From a bacterium (GTDB taxonomy: Bacteria > Chloroflexota > Dormibacteria > Aeolococcales > Bog-877): DNA of 64,000 nucleotides. Below are positions 3,495 through 19,276 of this stretch, piece by piece. The translations under genes were made by a program, and so were the position numbers. Each line of letters starts with the position of its first letter. Position 1 is the stretch's first letter. The notes beneath the pieces are model-generated. The model ran no database searches. It saw only the letters and a program-made list of their open reading frames with translations, and was not told the DNA's origin. The stretch lies in NCBI GenBank assembly GCA_021816695.1, contig JAKAXE010000001.1:67344-131343 (forward strand). The letters are read 5' to 3'.

Positions 3495-4160
3495 CTACTT
3501 GCAGACCCACTCCGACGACTCCCCGATGGAGAACATCTTGGCGGCGATGTCGGCCTGCTGGGTGGGGTTCCAGATGTCCGTGCCTCCGTGGCCGTAGAAG
3601 GTGGCGGGCATGAACTGGAAGAGGCCGCTGGCCCCGGAGTACCGATTGACGTCCGTGGGGTCAAGGCCGGACTCGCACTGTGCCACCCCGAGCAGCCAGG
3701 TGTAGGACACGTTGTACTTCTGGGCGGCGGCCCAGATGATCTGCTTGATGGTCCCGATGGGCGGCTCCGGCACCGGCTGCCAGAAGGCATTGCCATAGGG
3801 GAGGGATGGTTGGGGCGGCGGCGGCGGGGTCACCTTGGTCACGGACAGCGGCATCGTGATCTGGTAACCGGTGCTGCTGAGGAGGTTGCGGCCCTGGCCC
3901 GCGACCTGGGCCACCAGCGCCGGGGCGGGGGATTGGGGGCCGACCGCCTCTCCGGTGCTGAGCGCTCCCAGCACTGGGGCCAGCGCCGCCAGGCAGAGGG
4001 CGGCCGCTCCCCACCGCAGCCTCGAGGCCAGCCGGGGCCAAGCTCGGCGCTGCGCCGGCGCCGACGGCGCCAGCGTCAGCTCAAGCGGGGCCGTATATGA
4101 AACCCAGGTACCCTGCGCCATCCTGTATCCATCTGTAGTCGACTCGATCCCACCCGCCAC
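3495..4160 (-). CDS. Secreted lytic transglycosylase (SLT domain)
   Basis: Has the VAQCESGLDPTDVNRYSGASGLFQFMPATF SLT signature and an N-terminal signal-like segment (RLRWGAAALCLAALAPVLGALS). The true start is probably internal, because the ORF overlaps the upstream CHAP gene. Confidence 0.7.
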   Translation of the reverse strand: MAGGIESTTDGYRMAQGTWVSYTAPLELTLAPSAPAQRRAWPRLASRLRWGAAALCLAALAPVLGALSTGEAVGPQSPAPALVAQVAGQGRNLLSSTGYQITMPLSVTKVTPPPPPQPSLPYGNAFWQPVPEPPIGTIKQIIWAAAQKYNVSYTWLLGVAQCESGLDPTDVNRYSGASGLFQFMPATFYGHGGTDIWNPTQQADIAAKMFSIGESSEWVCK

Positions 4161-5049
4161 CCGGGACGCCGTAGAAGTTCATCTCCGAGACCTCGAAGGA
4201 ACCGGGCTTGACCGCCACCACGTAGGCCACGTGACCGTAGCCCCAGCTCTCGCCCGGAACGTCGATGCCCCACACCACGATCGACCCCACCTCGGGGGTC
4301 TGGCCCTCGGCATATCCCGCCGCCGCGGCGTTGGCCCACCACTGGTAGGCGTTGCCACCCCAGGTAACCTTGCGCTGGCTGGCGACCCACCAGGTGCAGT
4401 CGCCGAAGGCGAAGGACCAGCTCCCGGTGCCGACGGCCGGCTGGGGGGTGGTCAGCTCGGCCAGGAGCTGCTGGGAGCGCTGACCCAACTGCGCCTGGGC
4501 GACCATCGACTGGCTCTCGTCAGCCCGCAGTTGCGCGGTGGCGGCAGCCACAACCTGCTGGTCGTGCTTGATTGTCCCCACCAGCTGGGCGACCTGGGAG
4601 GCCACCGCCGACGGGAGGGCGGTGCTGGCCAGGAACTGGGCCAGGTTGGGCGCGGCCAGCGCCTCCGCCACCTGCTGGCTGCCGCTGCCGTCCACGTAGG
4701 CAGTGGACACCAGGTTGGTCAGCGCGACCTGATCTCCCGCCATCTGGCGCTGGAGCGTCGCTGAGGTCGCCTGGTCCGCAGCCAGCTTGGCGTTCAGCTG
4801 CTTCAAATAGCTCTGCTCCGACTCAATCTGGGTCAGGAGCGCCATCACCTGGCTCTGAGACGCCAGGTCGCCCTGGGCTCGGAGCTGGTTCAGAAGCTGG
4901 GTCAGTTGGGCCTGGTCACCGGCGAGTCCCTGCTGGGCGCTGGTGTTCGGACCTGGCCCCAGCACAGCGGAGATCCAGACCAACCCGGCCATCGCCACAG
5001 CAATCGAGACGCGCCCAATGGCTTGGGCTCCGCGCATACGTCCTCCCAC
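4081..5049 (-). CDS. Secreted CHAP-domain peptidoglycan hydrolase with N-terminal coiled-coil region
   Basis: Signal/TM (VSIAVAMAGLVWISAVLG) is followed by a Q/A/L-rich heptad-like region. C-terminal CHAP features are GDCTWWVA...GHVAYVV...LGFIYGP. Confidence 0.75.
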   Translation of the reverse strand: MGGRMRGAQAIGRVSIAVAMAGLVWISAVLGPGPNTSAQQGLAGDQAQLTQLLNQLRAQGDLASQSQVMALLTQIESEQSYLKQLNAKLAADQATSATLQRQMAGDQVALTNLVSTAYVDGSGSQQVAEALAAPNLAQFLASTALPSAVASQVAQLVGTIKHDQQVVAAATAQLRADESQSMVAQAQLGQRSQQLLAELTTPQPAVGTGSWSFAFGDCTWWVASQRKVTWGGNAYQWWANAAAAGYAEGQTPEVGSIVVWGIDVPGESWGYGHVAYVVAVKPGSFEVSEMNFYGVPGGGWDRVDYRWIQDGAGYLGFIYGPA

Positions 5050-8007: not shown

Positions 8008-9261
8008 TCACGTTGACGCCTGGCCGCCGGCGGACCAGCGGCTCGGACCACGTCCAACACACGGAATCAGAAGCAGCCCAGCTCCCACGTACGAGCCGGC
8101 CATCACCCCGAAGCCGGCGGCGAAGCCGAGGTGCTGGATGATCTGGCCGATAGCCACGATCCAGAGCGACCCGACGCCGTACGAGAGCGCGAAGTAGTAG
8201 CCGAACATCCCGGCCTGGGCCGAGGTGGCGATGCTGTCGCTGACCAGGGCCTGGAGCAGCGGGTTCTCCACGTACGCCACCAGCCCGACGAGCAGAGCCA
8301 GCACCGCCAGGCCGGCGAGCGGCAGAGAGGAAGCCAGGCCGAAGGCCAGGACCGCGACCGCCGAAAGGGCGTAGGCGCCCCACAGCACCGGGATGCGTCC
8401 GAGCCGGTCCGAGAGCGGCCCGCCCAGGATCGGTCCCAGGACCGCCCCCACGAGGACCACATTGAAGATCACCCCCACCGTGGCCTCCGGGAGGTGGACC
8501 CCGTTGCGCAGGTAGAGGGGGATGAAGGCGTTGAGCGTCCCCAGCCCACGACCACCGGCAGCGACCGTGGCCGCAGCCACCCCGAAGATCGCCACCCGGG
8601 GGTTGACCAGCTGGTCACGCCGGATCCGCGGCAGGTGGGGACGCAGGCTCGGTCGGGGGACACCCTTGCCGCGGTCGCCGGGGACGGGAGGGAAGGTGAG
8701 GAGCAAGACGAGACCGAGAAGGAAGAGCGGAATGGCAAGGATGAGGAGGGTTGGCCTCCAACCCAGATCGGCGATCAGCAGGGCTGCCGGAATGGGGATT
8801 ATCAGCGAACCCACGCTCCCCCCGATGGTGGCCACGCTGAGGGCGGTTCCCCGTCGCTCGGGGTACACCCGGGCCGCCACCGAACTACCCACCGGGTGCT
8901 GCTGGCTCGATCCCAAAAGGGCCAGCCCCTGACCCGTCGCAAAGACGGGGTAGGTGGGCGCCACCGCGCCGAGGATGGCGCAGAGCCCCACCACGAGGTT
9001 CTGGCACCCGAGGATCCAGCGCGCGGCCACCCGCTGGCCGACGTACCCGGCACTGGCCTGGGTGAGGCCGCCCACCACCCCGATCACCCCTACGGCCAGC
9101 CCCAGGGTGGCGTAGTTGAGGTGGAAGTCGACCAGGATCGCCGGGTAGGTCAGCGGCAGGAGGCCCGAGTACATGTGCTGGCCGGCGTGCGAGGTCGCCA
9201 CGAGGCCGAGCGCGCGCCGCCGCGCCCGCCTGCCCGCGCCGAGTTCCGCGGCCGCCTCCAC
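8008..9261 (-). CDS. MFS transporter
   Basis: 12-TM pattern with an MFS-like N-terminus (RRALGLVATSHAGQHMYSGLLPL). The track ORF runs to 9381 through an Arg-rich read-through; true start is more likely near 9261 (GTG) or the ATG at 9174. Confidence 0.75.
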   Translation of the reverse strand: MEAAAELGAGRRARRRALGLVATSHAGQHMYSGLLPLTYPAILVDFHLNYATLGLAVGVIGVVGGLTQASAGYVGQRVAARWILGCQNLVVGLCAILGAVAPTYPVFATGQGLALLGSSQQHPVGSSVAARVYPERRGTALSVATIGGSVGSLIIPIPAALLIADLGWRPTLLILAIPLFLLGLVLLLTFPPVPGDRGKGVPRPSLRPHLPRIRRDQLVNPRVAIFGVAAATVAAGGRGLGTLNAFIPLYLRNGVHLPEATVGVIFNVVLVGAVLGPILGGPLSDRLGRIPVLWGAYALSAVAVLAFGLASSLPLAGLAVLALLVGLVAYVENPLLQALVSDSIATSAQAGMFGYYFALSYGVGSLWIVAIGQIIQHLGFAAGFGVMAGSYVGAGLLLIPCVGRGPSRWSAGGQAST

Positions 9262-9280
9262 GCTTGCAGCATACGGAGCG

Positions 9281-9961
9281 TCAGGACGGGGACGGCGGCG
9301 GTGCAGGCCCGTAGACGAACCCGAGGAGGGTCTCAGTCGGACTCCCCGTGGCCCCCGCTGCGACCCCTCTGAGGTCCACATAGGGCGGGGCGGGGCCGGG
9401 AAGCGCCCAGTTGGACTCCGCCACCGTGTACGACCCGTCCGCGCTCACCCCGACCACGAAGGCCACGTGCCCAGGGCCCCGATCTCCGAACACCGCGATC
9501 GCCCCCAGCGCCGGGGAGACGCCGACCGCGTAGCCCGCCGCCGATGCCAGCTCCAGCCACTGTCCCCCATTGCCCCCCAGGAGGCCCTGGGGCGTGTGCC
9601 AGGTGACCAGCCGGCGCGTGGCCACGTACCAGGTGCACTGACCGGTGGAGAACCCCTGGTAGTTGGCGGGGAACGGATCGGGGTGTCCGGTGCAGGCCGA
9701 CGGTTGGACCGCCAGCGCCCCGGGCTCGGGTCCGCACGGAGCCGCCCAGTTTGGAAAGGAGGGCGAACTCGCCAGCACCACCTCTCCCGGCCGCAGGACC
9801 AGCCCCCCAGGATCTGGGAGCAAGCCACCCAGAGCCGGCCACCCGGCAGCCGCCGCGCCAGCGCCCAGCAATCCCACCAGGCTGGCCCCCAGGACCGCTG
9901 GGACCAGGCAGCCCAGGGCCAGAAGGGCACCCATTCCGGACAGCCAGCGCCGGGGACTCAT
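9281..9961 (-). CDS. CHAP-domain cell-wall hydrolase, last gene of the T4SS-like operon (VirB1-like role)
   Basis: C-terminal CHAP features GQCTWYVA...GHVAFVV...LGFVYGP are paralogous to the CHAP protein at 4081-5049. Signal/TM is MGALLALGCLVPAVLGASLVGLLG. ATG at 9961-9959 overlaps the VirB4 stop (ATGA, verified as plus-strand tcat at 9958-9961). Confidence 0.75.
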   Translation of the reverse strand: MSPRRWLSGMGALLALGCLVPAVLGASLVGLLGAGAAAAGWPALGGLLPDPGGLVLRPGEVVLASSPSFPNWAAPCGPEPGALAVQPSACTGHPDPFPANYQGFSTGQCTWYVATRRLVTWHTPQGLLGGNGGQWLELASAAGYAVGVSPALGAIAVFGDRGPGHVAFVVGVSADGSYTVAESNWALPGPAPPYVDLRGVAAGATGSPTETLLGFVYGPAPPPSPS

Positions 9962-12159
9962 GGGGAGTCCGCGGCCAGTTGACCGGTGCTCAGGGCCGGC
10001 CACCACTCTCGAGGAGCGCCCCCTCGGAAGCTGGCGTGCTCATCTCCGGCCAGCACCAGCCCGCAGCCCGGCTCCGCATCTCGGAGGAGCTCGCACTCCG
10101 CGTCGGAGAGCGAGAACGCGCGCCGCACCCCGGGAAGAGCCACCGGCTCCTGGCGGAGGAGCAGCTTGGTATGGCAGTTGCGGATGACCACGTTGCCCAC
10201 GGGCGAGTTGAGGAAGTCCTCGACCACCTGCGAAACCACTAGCAGCCCGGCTCCCAGCTTGCGGATGCGCCGAGCCATGCTCTCCAGGAACCGGGCTCCA
10301 GAGGGAGAGGAGAGCAGGACCTCGGCCTCATCCACGACCACCAGGGTGGGATGCGTGTGCGGGAGCTCGAGGTCCGCCTCCAGATGCCAGAGCACCAGCT
10401 CCATGGCAGTCCCCAGGAGCTCCTCCCGGGCGTGGAGGTGGCGCAGGGAGACCACCAATGCGTCGTCGACGTCGAGTCCGCCGGCGCCGTTGAAGACGCC
10501 TGACCCGGGGCCGGCTGCCTGTCGTTGCAGCCCGGCTGCGAGCTCCCCCTGGCCCGCCTCCTCCAGCTGCTCCAGGACCTCGGAGAGGCCGGCTCTCATG
10601 GGCTGGAGCCGAAGGGCGGTCAGAGCGGCGAGCCTCAGGGCCTCCAGGGAGCTCCTCGAGGTGGCCGACCGGCTCGACGCCAGCAGCCGGCCCAGCAGAG
10701 GAAGTGCCCGGTCGACCCGCCGCTCAGGCTCCTGACCAGGTGGCCCGAGTACATTCAGCCCGCGCTCGTCGGTCGCGCCCAGTTCCAGGCACCGGGCTCC
10801 GAGCAGCGCCCCCAGCTTCAGGTACTCCCCGGCGGGGTCCAGGCACCGTAGACGGCAACCTTGTAGGAAGAGGCGGGCCGCGAGCAGTTTGGAGGTGAAG
10901 GACTTGCCCCCACCGGAGGTCCCCAGGACCAGGATGTTGCGGTTGGGATTGGACTCGGCCAGGGGATCGACGGTCACCAGCTCCCTTGTGCTGGGGCTGG
11001 GTCCGAGGAGCACCCCGTTCCGCGCGTCCAACGTGGCCCGCAGGAAGGGGATCGCCGTGGCGGTGGCTGCGGTCGTCATGTCCCGGGACCAGCCGAGGGG
11101 GTCCACACCCAGCGGCAGCGTGGATCGCCATCCGTCCGCCTGGCGGTTGAACAGCGGAATTGGGGTGCACCCGAGCTCGATGAGGGTGTTCACCACCTGC
11201 TCCCAGCCCAGCTCCATCTCTGCCTGGCTGGATCCCTCCACCGTGATGCAGGTCACCAGCCGCATGAGCCGGTCCTCCTCCAGTAGGACCCGCTCCTCGA
11301 GGGCCAGCGCGTCCTCGAGTGCGGCCCGCGTGCCGGCATCCGGGCGGCGACCCTGGCGCCGGTCCACCTCGAGCCCGGTCTCGAAGGTGCGAATCCGTCG
11401 GCGCAGGTGGCTCAGACTGTGCACCTTGGGCACCGGGTACAGGTGCTGGGCCATCCGGATGGGAGCTGGGGTGGCCAGGACCAGGGGGGCCAGCCACCCC
11501 AGCTGCAGACGGCGGGGGAAGCCGCGCACGACCAGGCTGCGGACCACCCGGTCCGAGAGCTCCAAGCGGTCCGGCCTCACTGTGGCCGTGTCTGGCGCCA
11601 GCCAGCTGGCGAAGCTGGCGGTGGGGCGGCCGCTCCGCCCCCCGGTCAGCTCCTGGAGGATGGACAGCCAATCCCCGTCCTCAAGGGGACGGGGGCGCAG
11701 CCCCGGACCGCTCAAGGCTGCCGCGACCGCTCTCCGGCGCTGGTCCAGCTCGTACGTGCCGCGAGGGCGCACTTGCCCCGGCAGCGCCCCCCGCAGGCTC
11801 GCCGGGGAGTCGTCCCAGATCACTGCCAGGTGTCGGCGAAGGTGCACCTGGCCACTGGCCATGAGCCCCGCCGAGTAGTCGGCGTCGGCGCGCCCGATCG
11901 TGGTCTGCGCCGGTTGAGCTGAGGCGGCCAGGGGCCGGGAGATGGTGTAGAGGGAGACGGGCCCGGAGAGGGTTGAGAGTGCTCGCCAGTAGCGCCTCCA
12001 GACCAACTGCCGCTCGGCGCCGGAGCGCAGCAGGAGGTTCAGGGCGGCCAGTTCCAGCCCGACCCGGCGGCGCCCGTCCCGGAGGCTGGCCACGCCGCCC
12101 TCCAGGTAGGCGACGTCGATGAGGTCCAGGGTGGATCCGACCCGCGAGGGCAGCCTCAT
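9958..12159 (-). CDS. VirB4/TrbE/TcpF-like type IV secretion ATPase
   Basis: Walker A (NILVLGTSGGGKSFTSKLL) and Walker B-like (HPTLVVVDEAEVLL) motifs, ~730 aa. Start ATG at 12159-12157 forms an ATGA with the stop of the upstream small gene. The first ~150 aa of the 883-aa track ORF are rejected as Arg/Pro-rich read-through overprinting that small gene. Confidence 0.85.
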   Translation of the reverse strand: MRLPSRVGSTLDLIDVAYLEGGVASLRDGRRRVGLELAALNLLLRSGAERQLVWRRYWRALSTLSGPVSLYTISRPLAASAQPAQTTIGRADADYSAGLMASGQVHLRRHLAVIWDDSPASLRGALPGQVRPRGTYELDQRRRAVAAALSGPGLRPRPLEDGDWLSILQELTGGRSGRPTASFASWLAPDTATVRPDRLELSDRVVRSLVVRGFPRRLQLGWLAPLVLATPAPIRMAQHLYPVPKVHSLSHLRRRIRTFETGLEVDRRQGRRPDAGTRAALEDALALEERVLLEEDRLMRLVTCITVEGSSQAEMELGWEQVVNTLIELGCTPIPLFNRQADGWRSTLPLGVDPLGWSRDMTTAATATAIPFLRATLDARNGVLLGPSPSTRELVTVDPLAESNPNRNILVLGTSGGGKSFTSKLLAARLFLQGCRLRCLDPAGEYLKLGALLGARCLELGATDERGLNVLGPPGQEPERRVDRALPLLGRLLASSRSATSRSSLEALRLAALTALRLQPMRAGLSEVLEQLEEAGQGELAAGLQRQAAGPGSGVFNGAGGLDVDDALVVSLRHLHAREELLGTAMELVLWHLEADLELPHTHPTLVVVDEAEVLLSSPSGARFLESMARRIRKLGAGLLVVSQVVEDFLNSPVGNVVIRNCHTKLLLRQEPVALPGVRRAFSLSDAECELLRDAEPGCGLVLAGDEHASFRGGAPREWWPALSTGQLAADSP

Positions 12160-12554
12160 TGGCAGGAGGTGGCTCCCGAGGGCATGGTCCAGGAGATGGG
12201 CGAGGTCTCCGCACCGTCGACGTCGCGGAACTCCGCACGCGAACTCACCAGGTCCGGATGGCTCAGCCGCCTGCGCTGGGCCCGGAACCGCGCCGCGTCC
12301 AGGAGGTAGGCATCGAGCCGGCGGCCTCGGCGGCTGCCGAAGCCCAGAACGACGCAGCCGGCCGCCCACGGCACGGCCCCGGTCAGGGTGGCGTCCAGGC
12401 CGCAATGGGCGTGGATCAGGATCATCGGCAGGACGGCCGCTCCGCTGAGCCAGCCCAGCTGTGGGGTGGTCAGCCCGCCCCAGCGGCTGGGCACGTCGGA
12501 GATGGGTTGCGGTACTTCGGCCTCCATCATGTTCGCCTGGTTTGGTCCCGCCAA
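12156..12554 (-). CDS. VirB3/PrgI/TcpE-like small membrane protein (candidate)
   Basis: 132 aa with two adjacent TM helices (LGWLSGAAVLPMILIHAHCGL, TGAVPWAAGCVVLGF). Sits immediately upstream of, and ATGA-coupled to, the VirB4-like gene, which is the canonical VirB3 position in T4SS operons. Confidence 0.5.
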   Translation of the reverse strand: MAGPNQANMMEAEVPQPISDVPSRWGGLTTPQLGWLSGAAVLPMILIHAHCGLDATLTGAVPWAAGCVVLGFGSRRGRRLDAYLLDAARFRAQRRRLSHPDLVSSRAEFRDVDGAETSPISWTMPSGATSCQ

Positions 12555-14650
12555 CGGCCGGGCTGGGGCTGAAGCCTGCCGCGGCGCAGGGAGTTGAGGT
12601 AGGCCACATCCAGGCTATGGACCGCCGGACCTCCCGCGGCGGCGTACCTGGTGCCGAGGTCGTGGAGGGCCTCTCCCAACTCCGGGCCTTCGGCCAGGGA
12701 CTTGATCGCCGCGAGGTCTCTGGGGGTGAGCCCGGTCAGCCGGACGAGCTCCCGCTGGCGTCCCCCATCCCACAGGAGCTGGCGGCCGAGAAACTGCTCT
12801 CTCGTCTCCCGTCCGTCGACCGCCGGCCACCCACCGCCGGCTCCTGGGACCGCACTCTCGAGCCTGGTGGCGAGGTCCTCCTCTGGCCTCCCGGGCAGTC
12901 CCAGGGCGTGGGCGGCCCGCCCACCCCAGCGGGAGCCATAGCGCCGAGCCTGGGGGATGGCGGTGGTGGCCGCCAGAAGTGAGCCGCCGAGCACCGTACC
13001 CACAGACAGCTCAGCCAGGGCTCTTACCCGGCGGGTGGTGGACATCTCGCCCCGGCTGATTCGTCCCGGCACCTCGACCATGAGGAAGACCGTCACGGCG
13101 GCCAGCAGACACTTGGCGAACTGGTCCCCGGGGTTCCCGCTCCCCACCTCGGCCAGCAGGCCGCCCTGGGCCGCGGCGCAGCTCGAGTGCGTGGTGGGGG
13201 AGATGAAGGGGCAGGACCCGTGGGCAGCCACCGGGGCCAAGCCGGACACGGTGGAGACCACCGCCACGAACGCCAGGAAGATGAGGGTCTGGACCACCAC
13301 CACGGCCGAGAGCGACGCGACCGTGGCCCAGTAGCGGTTGAAGAGGGTGCGGCCCCCCGGCAGCGCCAGCGCCACGAAGGCCAGGCTGGAGCAGGCGGCC
13401 AGGAGCGAGAGGACGATGAATCGGGCCAGGTAGGTCAGCGCCAGCCACAGGCCGAGCCCGGTGAGGGCGGTGAAGGCCACCATCCCCATCAGCCCATCGG
13501 GGACGTCGTAGCCGTTGCGCCCGTGGGGCCCGACCCCGGCCCAGACGTCGGTGAAGGTGGGCGTCGTCCCCCAGTAGATGTCCGCATAGCGGCAATCGGC
13601 AGGGCTCTGGCCGTCTCCCGCCCGAGGCTCACCCGGTAGGGGAAGGACCCCCAACTGGAGGGACCCGATGGTGGAGCTGCCGCTGCCCTCCAGGCAGTTC
13701 TGGCCCTGGTTGTTGTTGACCTGGTTGTCGGTGTTGGTGCAGAGGGGCTGGCCGGGGGATGCATCGCCGCGGTCGCAGTTGGCGTCATGGAGCGGGGGGC
13801 CGAAATAGTTCTCGCTGCGGTCCAGGACCTCCTTGGTGAAGTCGGGGCTGGACACCCCGATGCAGTGCGACTGCGTGAAGGACCGGTCCATCCAGGGGTC
13901 GACCAGGACCTGCTGGCGCGGGCTCGGGCCCGGGAGCGAGAGATGGATGCCCGGGTGGATGATGGGACTGTCCTCCGGGCAGTAAGCGGTGACTGCGAGG
14001 ACGGTCATCATGTCCAGCGGGGCGGTCCCCGAGCCGCCCAGCCGGTGGAAGGTGGCCTCCAGAATGCCCTGGGACACCCAGCTCCCCATGTCGATGACGC
14101 GTCCCGCCAGGTGCAGTGGGAGCCCGGCCCCCAGGACTGCAGCGGCGATCAGGCAGGGCACGATGCCGGCTCTGAGATTCAGCTGCTGCCCGGCCATGAA
14201 GAGCGACACCTGGAGAGCGAAGGCGACCACGATCAGCGCCAGGGACAGCGGCTCAAGGACCGCGTTCATCTCCTGGACCCAGGGGATGCACCCGGCAGGA
14301 CCGCACTGGTGCGCCGGCTCACCCAGGCTCCCGTCGTAGTTGTCCACCACCGGGTTGGTGCCCACCAGGGTGGTGATCAGGTGCCAGGGGCCCGAGGTCA
14401 CCGCCCCGGTCAGGGGGTCGATGTGGGCCGGGTCAGGACTCCCGTCGAGGCTGCCCATGATGGCCACCGGCCCGGAGACGAACGCATCGATCACGTAGCA
14501 GAAGGGATCCGTGATCCCCCCGCACTGCTGGCTGTCGCTCCCGGCGGAGGCTGCCGCCGCGGGGGGAGTCGGGGTGGGCTGGGCGAGGGTTGCCGGAGCG
14601 CTCCCGGCGGAGAGCAGGTGCCCGGCCAGGACGACCACGGCAGCGGACGG
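12527..14650 (-). CDS. VirB6/TrbL/TcpH-like polytopic T4SS membrane protein with Cys-rich extracytoplasmic regions (candidate)
   Basis: Signal-like start (AAVVVLAGHLLSAGSAPATLA) and at least 6 TM helices. Cys pairs sit in predicted external loops (QQCGGITDPFCYV, HQCGPAGCIPW, NCDRGD...PLCTNT). The track ORF runs to 15103, but that N-terminus overprints the pilin-like gene and is rejected. Exact start near 14650 is unresolved (GTG at 14638?). Confidence 0.5.
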   Translation of the reverse strand, partial: PSAAVVVLAGHLLSAGSAPATLAQPTPTPPAAAASAGSDSQQCGGITDPFCYVIDAFVSGPVAIMGSLDGSPDPAHIDPLTGAVTSGPWHLITTLVGTNPVVDNYDGSLGEPAHQCGPAGCIPWVQEMNAVLEPLSLALIVVAFALQVSLFMAGQQLNLRAGIVPCLIAAAVLGAGLPLHLAGRVIDMGSWVSQGILEATFHRLGGSGTAPLDMMTVLAVTAYCPEDSPIIHPGIHLSLPGPSPRQQVLVDPWMDRSFTQSHCIGVSSPDFTKEVLDRSENYFGPPLHDANCDRGDASPGQPLCTNTDNQVNNNQGQNCLEGSGSSTIGSLQLGVLPLPGEPRAGDGQSPADCRYADIYWGTTPTFTDVWAGVGPHGRNGYDVPDGLMGMVAFTALTGLGLWLALTYLARFIVLSLLAACSSLAFVALALPGGRTLFNRYWATVASLSAVVVVQTLIFLAFVAVVSTVSGLAPVAAHGSCPFISPTTHSSCAAAQGGLLAEVGSGNPGDQFAKCLLAAVTVFLMVEVPGRISRGEMSTTRRVRALAELSVGTVLGGSLLAATTAIPQARRYGSRWGGRAAHALGLPGRPEEDLATRLESAVPGAGGGWPAVDGRETREQFLGRQLLWDGGRQRELVRLTGLTPRDLAAIKSLAEGPELGEALHDLGTRYAAAGGPAVHSLDVAYLNSLRRGRLQPQPGRWRDQTRRT

Positions 14651-14655
14651 CCGCC

Positions 14656-14943
14656 TCAGGGGCCGCTCGCGGAACAGGTGGCGGTGGCACAGGCGGTGTT
14701 GCTGCCGGTCAGCCCCTCGACGAAGGTCAGGATGGCTCCTTCGTTCACCAGCAGGAGCACGCCCAGGAGGACGGTCACCAGGCCCTGGATGGCGGCCGCC
14801 CGGCGCTGGCTGTTGTCTAGCGAGGTCATGTAGCGGATAGCCGCGAAGCTGAGGCACAGGACCGCTACCGCCCCCAGGGCCAGGGTGGTGACCGTGTGGA
14901 TGAGGTTGTTGAGCCCGGTCGCGAAGGTCGCCAGCTCCGTCAA
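14656..14943 (-). CDS. VirB2/TrbC-like pilin candidate (95 aa, two-TM hairpin)
   Basis: TTG start at 14943-14941. Two hydrophobic helices (HTVTTLALGAVAVLCLSFAAI, IQGLVTVLLGVLLLV) and a short Cys-containing tail. Sits between VirD4 and VirB6-like genes, with its stop at 14658-14656 directly abutting the VirB6-like start. Confidence 0.45.
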   Translation of the reverse strand: MTELATFATGLNNLIHTVTTLALGAVAVLCLSFAAIRYMTSLDNSQRRAAAIQGLVTVLLGVLLLVNEGAILTFVEGLTGSNTACATATCSASGP

Positions 14944-16493
14944 CGAAGCTCACCCCGGGGCTGAGCCCAGGCGATCGGACGCGGCCCATCTGCGATGGCG
15001 ATGGGCCGCCCCTTGGCCGGTCGGGGCATGCGCTCAAGGTCCGCCCCTGCGCCGGCCGCCGCTCGCATCCTGCGGTCGCCATACCAGGGAAGCTGGCGAA
15101 CAAGTGCCGGGTGGTCGCTGCCCCGAAGGATCAGGGCTCGCCCGCGCCGGAGGCGCCTGATCTCATCCGGCGGCAGATGCGGGTGGGCCTGTACGGGGTG
15201 GCCGCCCCCCGCGGAGTGCAGGGTGGCCGAGCCAACCAGACGGCTGGCCCGTTCCAGCAGGTCTACCTCCGAGATGCCGGGCAGGAGGAGCTTCGTCCGG
15301 CAGTTGGCCCAGAGTGCGGTCACGGCGTCGGCCCCGTAGAGGGTCGAGATGGACGCGACGTCTTGGGCCAGCAGCACCAGTCGCACCCCCTGGGTGCGGC
15401 CCAGCTGCACCAACGACGGCAGCTCGGGCAGGGTCGTCAGCTGGGCGAACTCGTCCAGGACGAAGAGCACGGGGAGCGCCGGCGGGCTGGCATACACCGC
15501 CCGCCAGCAGGCGGAAAGCAAGGCGCTCAGCAGTCCCCGCACCAGGGGAGCGTCGGTGGGGCTGACCACGCAGTAGAGGCTGTTCAGCTGACCGCTCGCC
15601 AAAGAGCGCGGATCGAAGGTGCTCCGGGAGGTGGTCCGAGCCACCTGATCGCTGCCGAACACCCCCAATTTAGACACCAGGGTGGCGACCACCCCCATGG
15701 CCGTGCGGTCCCCGCCGCTCAGTGCGCCCTGGACCAGCTGCCGGGCCAGCGGATGGCTGAGCTCCTCGACCACCTCCTCCGCCGGGACTTGCTGCAGTAG
15801 GGCCAGGAGGTCACTCAGGGTCAGACCTGAAGCGGCGGCCTCCACCAGCAGCCCGTGCAGCAGCTGAAGCGCCAGGTCGTGCCAGAACGGTTCACGCTCC
15901 GGCGGGCGGCCGAGAAGGAAGCCGGCGCTGCGCAGCGCGTCGTCCGAGCTGGAGATGGCGCTGATGGGGTTCCAGCCATCCCCGGGCTCCATGAGGGGGG
16001 CGAAGACGGCGGCTCGGCCTCGCCGCTCCCGGGCCATCAGGGTCCGGGCCAGCAGCTCCCCCTTGGGGTCCGTGACCACCACCGGGCCGGGCCACTCGAG
16101 GATCGCGGGAATCGCCAGCGCGCTGGACTTCCCCGACCCGGTGGGGCCCAGCACCAACAGATGCTCGTCCTCCGGCAGTCGGACCGTCACCGGCCCGATC
16201 CGTCCCAAGCGGACGCGTGCCCCACCCCCATGCCAGAGCCGGCGGAGCTCAAGGAGGCGGGCGGTGCGTGCCCCCCCCAGCGTCCCGGGGCGAAGGGAGG
16301 AGCGTGGACGGCCGAGCCAGATGAGCGCCGCAGCGGCCAACACCACCCCGAGGGTGGCAGCCAGGCCGGTCAGCCGCGTCCCCGTTGGTGGGCCGCCCAT
16401 GACCCCCTCGCGCATCGCGCCGGCCACCACCGCCGCTCCCACCACCGCGGCCGGCAGCAGCAGCCAGAGCAACTCCTCCTGCCTCTTCTCCAC
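14940..16493 (-). CDS. VirD4/TraG/TraD-family type IV coupling protein (T4CP)
   Basis: Two N-terminal TM helices are followed by Walker A (HLLVLGPTGSGKSS), VTDPKGE and Walker B (VLFVLDEFAQL) motifs, 517 aa. Confidence 0.85.
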   Translation of the reverse strand: MEKRQEELLWLLLPAAVVGAAVVAGAMREGVMGGPPTGTRLTGLAATLGVVLAAAALIWLGRPRSSLRPGTLGGARTARLLELRRLWHGGGARVRLGRIGPVTVRLPEDEHLLVLGPTGSGKSSALAIPAILEWPGPVVVTDPKGELLARTLMARERRGRAAVFAPLMEPGDGWNPISAISSSDDALRSAGFLLGRPPEREPFWHDLALQLLHGLLVEAAASGLTLSDLLALLQQVPAEEVVEELSHPLARQLVQGALSGGDRTAMGVVATLVSKLGVFGSDQVARTTSRSTFDPRSLASGQLNSLYCVVSPTDAPLVRGLLSALLSACWRAVYASPPALPVLFVLDEFAQLTTLPELPSLVQLGRTQGVRLVLLAQDVASISTLYGADAVTALWANCRTKLLLPGISEVDLLERASRLVGSATLHSAGGGHPVQAHPHLPPDEIRRLRRGRALILRGSDHPALVRQLPWYGDRRMRAAAGAGADLERMPRPAKGRPIAIADGPRPIAWAQPRGELR

Positions 16494-16577
16494 CGCCCGG
16501 TGAGTCCGGTCAGCTCCCTCCGGGGGGCGCAGCTCGGGTCTGCGACGGTGCCGTCGCCAGGTGCGCCCGGGCCGTTA

Positions 16578-16645
16578 CAGGAATTTGCCGGACTGCTTCA
16601 GGAACTTGCACAAGCGGGCCCACTCCGGGACCTAGACTGCGCCAG
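16578..16645. promoter_or_regulatory. Divergent promoter region with two AGGAAyTTGC direct repeats and a TAGACT -10-like box 7 nt upstream of a leaderless-looking ATG
   Basis: CAGGAATTTGC at 16578-16588 and CAGGAACTTGC at 16599-16609 are 10/11 identical and spaced 21 bp. TAGACT lies at 16633-16638 and the receiver-gene ATG at 16646. The region is locally AT-richer than its surroundings. Confidence 0.3.
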
Positions 16646-17119
16646 ATGCCCCGTTCTCCCCTCGCCCCCACCCGTCACCAGGGGGCGAGGACCATTCTGG
16701 TCGCTGACCGAGACCTCCGGTCCCGCACCGCCACGTCCGCGATCTTGCGCCGTCTGGGATTCGAGGTGGCCGAGGCGGAGTCGCCCCGCTCGGCACTCGC
16801 CCAGGCCCGCTCCGGACCCTACTCCTGCGCCATCCTTGACCTGAACATCTCGGAGGCCGGCGCCTTCGATCTCTGCCGCCGGCTGCTCTCGGCTCCGGGC
16901 TGGAGCTGGACCCCGGTGATCTTCACCAGCTCGCGCCCCCCCGAGCCCGAGCAGAGGGACACGCTCCAGCAGGGCGGATTCACGTTCCTGCTCAAGCCGT
17001 TCCGCTCCGGGCAGCTCCTCTCAGCCGTGGGCGATGCCCTGGCCGCCACCACGCCGTTGCGTGAATCCCGGCCCGATCGGAGGCGGGCGCTCTCCACCGT
17101 CGAGGCCGCCACCGCCTGA
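16646..17119 (+). CDS. Single-domain CheY-like response-regulator receiver protein
   Basis: ILVADRD (acidic pocket), phospho-acceptor context AILDLN, conserved T/S and LLKPF lysine. There is no output domain. Confidence 0.75.
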   Translation: MPRSPLAPTRHQGARTILVADRDLRSRTATSAILRRLGFEVAEAESPRSALAQARSGPYSCAILDLNISEAGAFDLCRRLLSAPGWSWTPVIFTSSRPPEPEQRDTLQQGGFTFLLKPFRSGQLLSAVGDALAATTPLRESRPDRRRALSTVEAATA

Positions 17120-17131
17120 GCGGACCGGTGC

Positions 17132-19276
17132 CTAGCCCCCCGGGCCCGGTGCCTGAGGCGACCCCGATGGCGACGGCACGGATGACGGGGATGGGGAGGG
17201 AGATGCCGATGGGGTCGCGGGCGCGCTGGGGGTGACGACCGGGGTGGGGGTCGGGGTAGGCGACGGCGTCACGCTGCCTCCCCCGAGCACCTTGGTCGAC
17301 GGTCCGGTCCCTGGCAGGTAGTAGTCAACCTCACCGTTCACGGTGCGGCTCACCAGGCCCTGAGGGGGTGTGTACCAATGGTTCGGTACCCCCGCCAGAG
17401 CGGCCTCCATGAACTGGTTCCAGAGGGAGGCGGCTCCGCTGATGCCATTCAGCCCGCCACCGTACATGGGGGCGTCGTTGGCGTTCCCCACCCAGTCTGC
17501 CCCCACCAGCTGAGGCGTCCAGCCCACGGCCAGGTTGTCGCGGTAGCTGTTGGAGGTCCCGGTCTTGATCGCCGCCGTGTGCCCCGGCAGGATCAGGGGG
17601 GTGTTCGGTCCGAAGGCCAGGAGCCGGTTGGAGTTGCGGGAGAGGATGGTGTTCATGATGTAGGCGACCTGGGGGGATAGCACTTGGGTGGCGGCGGTCG
17701 GCGCCTGGTAGAGGATCTGCCCCGTCTGACTCTCCACCGTGTTCACGAAGTGGGCCGGGTGCAGCACCCCTTGGGAGGCGAAGACCGACCCCGCCTGGGC
17801 CAGTTCCCAGAGGGGAATCGGATAGGCCCCCAAGGTCATGCTCGGCCCGTACGAGGAGTCCGGTCCGTTCAGGGTTGTCACCCCCATCGCCCGGGCGGTG
17901 GTGAGGATCTGCGGGATGCCGGTGGCGAGCTCGACCCGGACGGCCGGCACGTTGAGCGAATTGCCCAAGGCGACCTGGATCGGCACCACCCCGGCGTAGG
18001 TTCCCTCGTAGTCGTGGACCACGAAGGGCCCGCCGCCCGGCCCGCCGGTGGGGAGGCTGTAGGGGCTGTCCAGAACCGGGGTGGTCATGGTGACCTGGTG
18101 GTCCGCGATGGCGGTGGAGTAGGTGAAGAGCTTGAACGTCGACCCCGGCTGCCGGGCCACCGCCGCCATGTCGATCTCGCCCCCCGGCACATTGGGCCCG
18201 GCACCGCCGACCCAGACCTCGATCTGCCCGGTGGCGGGATCCTCAGCCACCAGGGCACCGTCGGTCATGTGCATCGCCTGGTGCCTGGCGATGTCGGCCG
18301 TCACCAGCTGCTGTGCCTTCTGGTTCAGCGCCACGTTGAGGCTGGTGTAGACCCGCAGCCCCATGGTGGCGTAGCCCGAGCCGAAGTGCTGCTGCAGCCA
18401 GACGCGCACCTGGTCGACGAAGTAGGGCGCGTTGTCCACCGGGGCCTCGCTTCCCGAGCCCAGAGCGGGCGGCTTGGCCAGAACCGCCGCCGCCTCCCGG
18501 GCGGGAAGCTCCCCGTACTTGACCATGGCGGCCACCACTGCCTGCTGGCGAAGGCGCGCCCCCGCCATGTTGCTGAAGGGGTCGAGGTAGGACGGTGCGG
18601 GCAGGAGGCCGGCGAGCAGGGTGGCCTCGGGGAGGGTGAGCTGCGCGGCGCTCACCCCGAAGTAGGTCTCGGCGGCGGCCTGGATCCCGGTCGCTCCCTG
18701 TCCGAAGTAGACGTCATTCAGGTAGTCGTCCAGGATCTGGCTGCGGCTGAGGTGCGAGGTCAGCTCGTTTCCGTAGAGGATCTCCTTCACCTTGTAGGTG
18801 ATCGACTTGTTGTCGGTGAGGTAGAGGAGCTTGGCCACCTGCTCCGGGATCGTGCTGGCGCCCTGGGCGGCGCTGTGATGAATCAGGTCGTAGACCCCGG
18901 CCTCGACGATCCGCCCCACGTCGAAGCTCGGCGCCGTCCAGAAGCTGTGGTCCTCGATGGCGACCACCGCCTTCTGCATCGCCGGGGCGATCTGGTTAAG
19001 CGGCACCGGGATCCGGCTGGTGCCGGAGGGATGGAGGTCCGCCACCAGCTGGTTGCCCTGGCCGTACACCACAGTGTCTGTGGGGAGTTGCCGGGGAGGC
19101 GGCAGCGAGCTGTAGGCACGGGCCAGCGCCGTCGTGGGCACCGCCAGCGCAACCACCGCCACCAGCACGCCCATTAGTGCCAGGCCCACGATCTGCCGGC
19201 CGTGGGGAGCTGCGGCGCCACCACGCCGGCGGCCCCGGCGCGGTCGCTGGCGGGACTCGGGATTCAGTTCACGCAT
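17132..19276 (-). CDS. Class A penicillin-binding protein (bifunctional transglycosylase/transpeptidase, PBP1A-type)
   Basis: N-terminal TM segment. GT51 motif AIEDHSFW. Transpeptidase motifs STFKLF (SxxK), SNS (SxN) and KTGTS (KTG). Pro/Ser/Thr-rich C-terminal tail. Confidence 0.9.
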   Translation of the reverse strand: MRELNPESRQRPRRGRRRGGAAAPHGRQIVGLALMGVLVAVVALAVPTTALARAYSSLPPPRQLPTDTVVYGQGNQLVADLHPSGTSRIPVPLNQIAPAMQKAVVAIEDHSFWTAPSFDVGRIVEAGVYDLIHHSAAQGASTIPEQVAKLLYLTDNKSITYKVKEILYGNELTSHLSRSQILDDYLNDVYFGQGATGIQAAAETYFGVSAAQLTLPEATLLAGLLPAPSYLDPFSNMAGARLRQQAVVAAMVKYGELPAREAAAVLAKPPALGSGSEAPVDNAPYFVDQVRVWLQQHFGSGYATMGLRVYTSLNVALNQKAQQLVTADIARHQAMHMTDGALVAEDPATGQIEVWVGGAGPNVPGGEIDMAAVARQPGSTFKLFTYSTAIADHQVTMTTPVLDSPYSLPTGGPGGGPFVVHDYEGTYAGVVPIQVALGNSLNVPAVRVELATGIPQILTTARAMGVTTLNGPDSSYGPSMTLGAYPIPLWELAQAGSVFASQGVLHPAHFVNTVESQTGQILYQAPTAATQVLSPQVAYIMNTILSRNSNRLLAFGPNTPLILPGHTAAIKTGTSNSYRDNLAVGWTPQLVGADWVGNANDAPMYGGGLNGISGAASLWNQFMEAALAGVPNHWYTPPQGLVSRTVNGEVDYYLPGTGPSTKVLGGGSVTPSPTPTPTPVVTPSAPATPSASPSPSPSSVPSPSGSPQAPGPGG

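Follow-up and report, generated by a model that had tools for sequence, protein, structure and literature searches.

VirB2-like pilins of chromosomal type IV secretion systems (T4SSs) have been described in Patescibacteria, where the profiles PF18895 and PF04956 serve to detect them in mostly relaxase-less systems related to the mating-pair formation (MPF) class FATA (PMC12102498). In these bacteria the type IV coupling protein (T4CP) is usually encoded far from virB4 (PMC12102498). Dormibacteraeota have been grouped with Chloroflexi and the candidate phyla radiation (CPR) as a monoderm clade (10.1101/2021.05.31.446380), and we found no description of a Dormibacteria T4SS in the literature searched. 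Here, we analyze a stretch of 64,000 nucleotides (hereafter the window) from contig JAKAXE010000001.1 of a Dormibacteria assembly (GCA_021816695.1) and, within it, a 95-aa open reading frame (ORF) located between the genes for a VirD4-type coupling protein and a large membrane protein. We consider it highly likely that this ORF is real and that it encodes a small inner-membrane helical-hairpin protein of the T4SS_pilin family (PF18895, VirB2-type), second in an operon of six genes for a T4SS of the monoderm type.

The 95-aa ORF is covered by a longer ORF of 858 aa (12527-15103, minus strand), which also overlaps the 517-aa ORF of VirD4. A sequence-only reading of the window had proposed that a pilin-like gene is hidden here under the N-terminus of the longer ORF, starting on the VirD4 stop and ending close to a hydrophobic segment of the downstream protein. 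Both boundaries are as it described them. The junction reads GCTTCG-TTGA-CGG, in which the TTG start (14943-14941) and the TGA stop of VirD4 (14942-14940) overlap in a stretch of 4 nt. Because an in-frame TGA (14952-14950) stands two codons 5' of the TTG, this is the only canonical start before residue 39, and a longer form of the protein is impossible in the window. At the other end, the stop codon (14658-14656) lies 17 nt upstream of GTG 14638, which opens the hydrophobic segment VVVLAGHLLSAGSAPATLA. The G + C content by codon position (GC1/2/3) is 0.60/0.52/0.92 in the 95-aa frame, compared to 0.93/0.61/0.53 over the same bases in the 858-aa frame; for VirD4 it is 0.76/0.54/0.86, and real genes of the window, which has a GC content of 70%, show a GC3 of about 0.86-0.90. 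In a sliding frame-specific analysis three coding frames succeed one another: that of VirD4 as far as about 14940, then that of the 95-aa ORF (14943 to 14656) and, below about 14650 only, that of the 858-aa ORF, whose GC3 there is of the coding type (about 0.9).

The 95-aa protein has 38 cluster-level homologues (69-99% identity), of which the named ones are mostly called Candidatus Dormibacteria or Dormibacterota. Their lengths are nearly all 93-105 aa, the exceptions being a few longer gene calls (113-126 aa) and one fragment of 60 aa. For a comparison by codon position, differences from the window were counted over an ungapped block of 243 nt in 32 loci, identified by a genome scan in metagenome-assembled genomes (MAGs) of Candidatus Dormibacteria. 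Substitutions fall on positions 1/2/3 of the 95-aa frame in the numbers 317/113/1007, with 70-100% identity across the loci and a ratio of nonsynonymous to synonymous substitution rates (dN/dS) of 0-0.30, whereas in the 858-aa frame dN/dS is 3 to >30. In the four closest loci, the proportions of nonsynonymous and synonymous differences (pN/pS) in the 95-aa frame are 0-0.006 and 0.13-0.25, respectively. Stop codons occur within the compared block of the 858-aa frame in 13/32 loci, and in none for the 95-aa frame. Where VirD4, the 95-aa gene and the downstream gene are all present (37 loci), a start codon is found at, or at most two codons from, the aligned position in every case, resulting in lengths of 94-101 aa. 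The 95-aa ORF is a genuine gene under strong purifying selection, its conservation in 32 independent loci far exceeding chance. The sequence-only reading had expected homologous clusters to conserve this ORF and not the N-terminal extension of the longer one, and the loci bear this out; the reverse pattern, with a conserved extension and a degenerate 95-aa frame, is the opposite of what they display.

The N-terminal arm of the 858-aa ORF (155 residues) is an artefact, an open frame that results from the high GC content and corresponds to no protein. Glycine, proline, arginine and histidine together account for 54% of these first 155 residues and for 27% of the remaining 703, in agreement with the aberrant composition that had been noted for the first about 150. 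In 22 of the 37 loci the downstream gene shares the frame of the 95-aa gene, so that the stop of the pilin-like gene forms the upstream boundary of the ORF and no extension is possible there; in the remaining loci the frame is open for 58 to 565 nt upstream of the downstream gene. Full-length homologues of the downstream protein (48 at E < 1e-280) are called at 680-734 aa and none near 858, the shorter entries being partial or on short contigs. The description of the 95-aa gene as hidden is correct in that the 858-aa ORF overlaps it, but applies to a longest-ORF reading only: standard gene callers already find it, and 55 blocks of public assemblies contain the exact protein as a called gene, with a gene of 643-686 aa after it. 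A scan of positions 14300-17200 for sigma-70 promoters and intrinsic terminators found none, and is uninformative at such GC content.

The position of the gene is conserved as well. It lies between VirD4 and the 703-aa downstream protein, two genes from VirB4, in 32/32 loci of the synteny search (VirB4 was seen in 28 of these, namely those whose contigs extend that far). The order penicillin-binding protein (PBP), response regulator, VirD4, 95-aa gene, membrane protein, PrgI-like, VirB4 and CHAP is kept in every locus with enough flank, and the T4SS operon is a fixed chromosomal feature of Candidatus Dormibacteria. Leaving out five loci that are at least 89% identical to the window throughout (listed as L001-L004 and L035-L037), identity to the window is 70-91% for the 95-aa protein, 58-82% for the PBP, 54-65% for VirD4, 52-73% for the membrane protein, 38-49% for the PrgI-like protein and 40-55% for VirB4. 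The 95-aa protein is therefore the best conserved and most constrained product of the operon. Its variation is concentrated in residues 1-10 and 81-95, with a mean column identity of 0.60 and 0.72, respectively, against 0.93 in the core. Several MAGs with a Dormibacteria-type locus (L020, L023, L024, L029 and L030; SMAG_U series) are labelled Verrucomicrobiia, Acidiferrales, Micrarchaeaceae/Micrarchaeia archaeon or Nanopelagicaceae; these SMAG_U records are probably mislabelled or mis-binned.

Analysis of the protein family places the 95-aa protein among the T4SS pilins. Its top Pfam match is PF18895 (T4SS_pilin; E 3.5e-5, 24.2 bits), and this is also the top family for all of the 28 aligned relatives, each of which matches at E <= 0.01 (best E 1.2e-6). 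PF18895.6 is carried by 14/38 homologue clusters in the precomputed annotation. A weak, full-length match is found to the NCBIfam family NF045849 (Mbov_0395 family; residues 4-76 to profile positions 2-77 of 80, E 1.7e-4, 21 bits). A family-profile search of 1.84 billion representative proteins returned the family itself as a single cluster at 50% identity and, with E-values from 1e-4 to 1e-6, multi-repeat proteins as well as small ones of 105-170 aa; all ten of the small proteins tested pass the gathering score of PF18895 (36-75 bits). When the 95-aa family is aligned by hhalign to nine PF18895 proteins (35.7-53.8 bits each), chosen from the matches of its own profile, the probability is 98.5% (E 2.6e-15, 87 columns). 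Window residues 2-88 align to the mature part of the pilin, with the first ~40 template columns (leader and linker) unmatched. The two groups share a polar motif, A-I-R-Y-M-T-S-L-D-N-S-Q-R-R here and G-I-Q-Y-I-T-S-x-G-D-x-x-K-x-x-x-A-K/R-Q in the relatives. Membership of the PF18895-type T4SS pilin-like family is thus supported, with a score at the family threshold and strong homology at the profile level. The earlier proposal of a VirB2/TrbC-like pilin holds for the pilin likeness, but the closest family is not the classical TrbC/VirB2 family PF04956, which only 6/28 relatives match at E <= 0.01. The proteins P0039 (385 aa) and P0040 (471 aa) are single polypeptides of 4-5 tandem pilin-like hairpin repeats that each bear a G-x-x-Y-x-T-[SA] loop motif, and look like fused pilin arrays.

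Compared with the PF18895 pilins of Patescibacteria/CPR, the Dormibacteria protein shows homology at the profile-profile level, two hydrophobic helices and a basic loop with a Y-x-T motif; as in that group, it is encoded in a chromosomal T4SS cluster with no relaxase seen nearby, in a lineage regarded as monoderm (10.1101/2021.05.31.446380). In contrast to Patescibacteria, the pilin-like gene directly follows the T4CP gene, and unlike typical PF18895 pilins the protein is leaderless and scores just below the Pfam cut-off. The two nearest non-Dormibacteria relatives whose contigs were examined carry tandem arrays of six (L038, 6477-8943) and four (L039, 6327-8227) PF18895 genes, on contigs of 41-48% GC. 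The members of these arrays are divergent and 94-240 aa long, some are leaderless, and one array adjoins a 1144-aa TrbL_3 protein. In arrangement, if not necessarily in taxonomy, they resemble those described for Patescibacteria, whereas the Dormibacteria gene is single-copy and highly conserved. Because short members without a hydrophobic leader (94 and 99 aa, on two unrelated contigs) occur in these ordinary PF18895 arrays, we rejected the leaderless architecture as a new variant.

Similarities to other systems are more limited. Like the VirB2/TrbC/TraA pilins of diderm bacteria (PF04956), the protein is small, forms a helix-loop-helix hairpin with a basic loop predicted to face the cytoplasm or lumen, and is encoded in a T4SS operon. 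It differs in its PF04956 score (14.9 bits; gathering score 27.9 bits), in having no long signal peptide, with cyclisation or acetylation partners not in evidence, and in being part of monoderm-type machinery (PrgI-like protein, CHAP hydrolase). The NF045849 proteins (Mbov_0395 family, pilin-like conjugal transfer proteins) are likewise small and pilin-like and belong to the T4SS of a wall-less/monoderm bacterium, but the match of 21 bits compares to a cut-off of 40 bits, and that family is found in mobile integrative and conjugative elements (ICEs) of Mycoplasma whereas the Dormibacteria locus is chromosomal with no relaxase or integrase seen. The archaeal Ced/Ted DNA-import systems are also chromosomal, non-mobile, T4SS-derived machines, in which a VirB2-like subunit is found together with a membrane protein of the VirB6-like type and an ATPase of the VirB4 family (PMC9905601). 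They are a plausible functional analogue of the Dormibacteria T4SS; for the ATPases of the operon, NCBIfam gives only weak CedB/CedD matches.

Hydropathy peaks at about residues 19-36 and 53-75, on either side of the basic loop RYMTSLDNSQRRAAA, and the AlphaFold2 (AF2) model (pLDDT 68.7) shows helices at 2-40 and 46-81 connected by a loop, with a disordered Cys-containing tail; the two-helix hydrophobic protein described from the sequence is thus recovered. The loop contains three Arg and one Asp, and no basic residues are present in the tails. By the positive-inside rule, this predicts an N-out/C-out topology with the loop in the cytoplasm. Such a topology is established for VirB2/TraA pilins. 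The C-terminal tail (residues 83-92; window 14656-14700, minus strand) keeps a T-x-C-x-(T/S)-x-x-C motif, with C85 invariant and C90 found in at least 90% of the sequences, and could form an extracellular disulphide loop; C30 in helix 1 is also invariant.

We propose that translation from the TTG is coupled to the termination of VirD4 via the TTGA overlap, the overlap being seen in the sequence and the coupling suggested by it. The protein would then insert in the cytoplasmic membrane so that its N- and C-terminus face outward and its Arg-rich loop lies in the cytoplasm; as it has no cleavable leader, insertion would probably be of the YidC type. By analogy with VirB2/TraA pilins, the VirB4 ATPase and the large membrane protein may extract the subunits and stack them into a pilus or a short conduit across the cell wall, which the CHAP hydrolase would open. 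Filament formation, and the function and substrate of the T4SS, are likewise inferred.

Several points weigh against an assignment as pilin. The 95-aa protein stays 2.4 bits below the gathering score of PF18895 (24.2 versus 26.6), and its match to TrbC/VirB2 (PF04956) reaches only E 0.031, below the cut-off in bits. The proteins for the hhalign comparison were not drawn independently of the family, as they came from its own profile matches. Two-helix hydrophobic proteins draw biased matches, and several of the multi-stretch matches in the profile search may be partly of this kind. There is no ~40-residue leader ahead of the protein, in contrast to typical family members. A Foldseek search of the model against the PDB returned generic helical hairpins only (best E 1.9) and no T4SS pilin, although it is uninformative given the simplicity of the fold and the moderate quality of the model. 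A sequence-profile search of the PDB likewise found nothing meaningful, its one match, to the uncharacterised protein 5yed (E 0.19), being due to chance. Finally, the very high conservation is as compatible with a subunit buried in a translocon as with one that forms a filament.

This last point bears on an alternative that we regard as possible, if somewhat unlikely: the 95-aa protein could be a real but non-polymerising member of the T4SS, acting as an assembly factor or lining the translocon in the cytoplasmic membrane rather than serving as the building block of a pilus. Its standing as the best conserved product of the operon would fit such a role and is unlike the highly divergent pilin arrays of Patescibacteria, which average 25% identity (PMC12102498). 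In addition, VirB2 is stated not to be found among Gram-positive T4SSs, with Patescibacteria as the sole exception (2025 review, PMC12857230). The gene is also single-copy, with no paralogue in the window, and its product is without a leader peptide. Against this stands that small filament subunits can be highly conserved too, with every face making contacts, as in F-like TraA. The homology to PF18895 moreover spans the whole mature pilin region, the variation lies at both termini as expected of the exposed ends of a pilin, and a separate gene already encodes a small subunit of the PrgI/VirB3-like type.

Alternatively, the protein could be a genuine protein with two transmembrane (TM) segments of which the pilin likeness is a compositional artefact, with an unrelated role, for instance as a holin-like partner of the CHAP hydrolase. 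We consider this very unlikely, since PF18895 is the top match for 28/28 relatives, a reciprocal profile search gave only PF18895 members among the small proteins tested, and the shared polar loop motif (Y-x-T...Q/K-R) is more than hydrophobicity. The single-sequence scores, all below cut-off (also 21 versus 40 bits for NF045849), can be read in its favor, as can the non-specific fold search and the tendency of hydrophobic hairpins to match many families weakly; weak Pfam matches of the 95-aa protein are also found to Imp-YgjV, DUF202 and Wzy_C. The gene is nevertheless fixed between VirD4 and the membrane protein, four genes from the CHAP gene.

A third reading, full translation of the 858-aa ORF with the 95-aa frame open by mere chance in DNA of 70% GC, has practically no probability left: the longer frame is open throughout in the window and its four closest relatives, and out-of-frame tblastn still gives 41-83% identity, but the reading is already refuted by the GC3, codon-position, stop and frame data, with no homologue called at such a length and an extension that would also overlap 160 nt of VirD4. 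BLAST identity alone would have misled here, as these values are obtained out of frame in such GC-rich DNA. The locus thus holds a lesson for annotation at 70% GC, where the longest ORF can swallow a real upstream gene and out-of-frame BLAST identity can pass for conservation of a protein; such questions of frame are settled by codon-position statistics together with the pattern of stop codons in relatives.

The pilin-like gene is part of a compact operon, the features of which are collected in Table 1. The order is VirD4, pilin-like, 703-aa membrane protein, PrgI-like, VirB4 and CHAP hydrolase. Four junctions are overlaps of 4 nt, TTGA between VirD4 and the pilin-like gene and ATGA for membrane protein/PrgI, PrgI/VirB4 and VirB4/CHAP, which suggests tight translational coupling along the operon.

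Table 1. Features of the T4SS operon in the window and the spurious extension that overlaps it.
Feature	Position	Strand	Remarks
VirD4-type coupling protein (T4CP), 517 aa	14940..16493	minus	PF02534 E 6.5e-41, PF10412, PF12696; stop overlaps start of pilin-like gene
Spurious N-terminal extension of 858-aa ORF	14639..15103	minus	noncoding in that frame; overlaps VirD4 3' end and whole pilin-like gene
95-aa pilin-like gene (PF18895-type)	14656..14943	minus	TTG start, two hydrophobic helices, basic loop, Cys-containing C-terminal tail
Polytopic membrane protein, ~703 aa, Cys-rich extracytoplasmic region	12527..14638	minus	stands at VirB6 position
PrgI-like (VirB3-like) protein, 124 aa	12156..12530	minus	PF12666 E 1.3e-5; ATGA overlaps on both sides
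VirB4-family ATPase, 733 aa	9958..12159	minus	PF19044, PF12846, NF045971 E 1.3e-48; homologues named VirB4 family by NCBI
CHAP-domain cell-wall hydrolase, 226 aa, VirB1-like role	9281..9961	minus	PF05257 E 1.5e-16; start overlaps VirB4 stop

The start of the 703-aa protein is uncertain (GTG 14638, with ATG 14458 as alternative); alignments with distant loci begin at residues 2-37 of the GTG-14638 form. There are 57 homologues, confined to the set of MAGs that carry the locus; those with a name are all from Dormibacteria/Dormibacterota, and none has a Pfam domain. For the protein itself, Pfam gave no match at E <= 10 (whole protein and two fragments), NCBIfam nothing relevant, and neither a PDB profile search nor Foldseek on the AF2 model (pLDDT 49.8) gave a match. 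The model is poor overall and shows several long hydrophobic helices, with a C-terminal domain of ~120 residues that is confident (pLDDT ~90). The protein also has a large extracytoplasmic region, in which many Cys and His/Asp residues are invariant. The sequence-only reading had called this protein VirB6-like; its position and topology (long hydrophobic helices) agree with that label, which is a positional inference, but no sequence or fold search showed VirB6 likeness. It is possibly a lineage-specific VirB6 replacement or fusion.

The PrgI-like protein matches PF12666 with 26.1 bits (cut-off 27), and the 124-aa gene is also called in public assemblies, where it is flagged as PrgI (weak). 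Like the pilin-like gene under the 858-aa ORF, it lies under the N-terminal ~150 residues of a longer ORF, in this case an 883-aa VirB4 ORF (12156-12609), and GC3 over the gene is 0.87 in the PrgI frame versus 0.59 in the 883-aa frame. The true start of VirB4 is at 12159 (733 aa), and not that of the 883-aa ORF. The nearest VirB4 relatives named outside Dormibacteria at less than ~40% identity are from Actinomycetota (31-37% identity); as this search was word-index limited and composition-biased, it cannot decide the relation to Patescibacteria VirB4. The CHAP hydrolase, directly after VirB4, has a hydrophobic N-terminus, as expected of a membrane-anchored cell-wall hydrolase. Along with the VirB4-family ATPase and the VirD4-type T4CP, it is one of the components that characterise monoderm-type (MPF-FA/FATA-like) T4SS clusters. 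No genes for VirB7, VirB9 or VirB10 were seen among the called genes around the operon.

Relative to the window (8008-19276), the neighbourhood in all loci with enough flank consists of a class A PBP, a divergent response regulator, the T4SS operon and CHAP, with a major facilitator superfamily (MFS) transporter next in about half. As the whole neighbourhood is syntenic, with PBP identity down to 58%, the T4SS looks like a vertically inherited core locus and not like a mobile element. The flanks and the rest of the window contain housekeeping genes (DegV, PlsY, fumarase, MFS, UbiA, URO-D, NarGHJI, Acs, aconitase and transaldolase). A relaxase or integrase, as a conjugative element (ICE or plasmid) would carry close to its T4SS, was not seen in the called genes up to 10 kb from the operon on each side, nor in 20 larger ORFs elsewhere in the window; small ORFs and ORFs without a Pfam match were not exhaustively screened. 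A second CHAP-domain gene (~318-322 aa; window 4081-5049, minus strand) is located ~5 kb past the operon, after MFS, UbiA and URO-D; the CHAP assignment comes from gene calls of locus L035 (19907-20288), which is nearly identical to the window.

Overall, the result is solid but fairly ordinary, as the gene is already present in public calls and its family is known; the context is of some specialist value. A broader reading would be that the chromosomal T4SS of Dormibacteria is vertically inherited, lacks a relaxase, has one leaderless VirB2-type pilin and occupies a fixed locus beside a class A PBP, and that it is related by descent to the pilin-bearing T4SS of the sister lineage Patescibacteria, which is essential for growth there. 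We regard this as doubtful at present. If true, it would imply that pilus-bearing monoderm T4SSs predate Patescibacteria and are not a one-off acquisition by epibionts, and it would point to a non-conjugative housekeeping role, such as the uptake of DNA or nutrients or cell-cell exchange. The analysis places a PF18895-type pilin-like gene outside Patescibacteria, in Dormibacteria, where it is strongly constrained and a fixed part of a T4SS that is of the monoderm type and apparently non-mobile. This extends the monoderm lineages in which to look for a T4SS pilus or conduit, and the single-copy, highly conserved subunit offers a simpler comparator to the divergent arrays of Patescibacteria.

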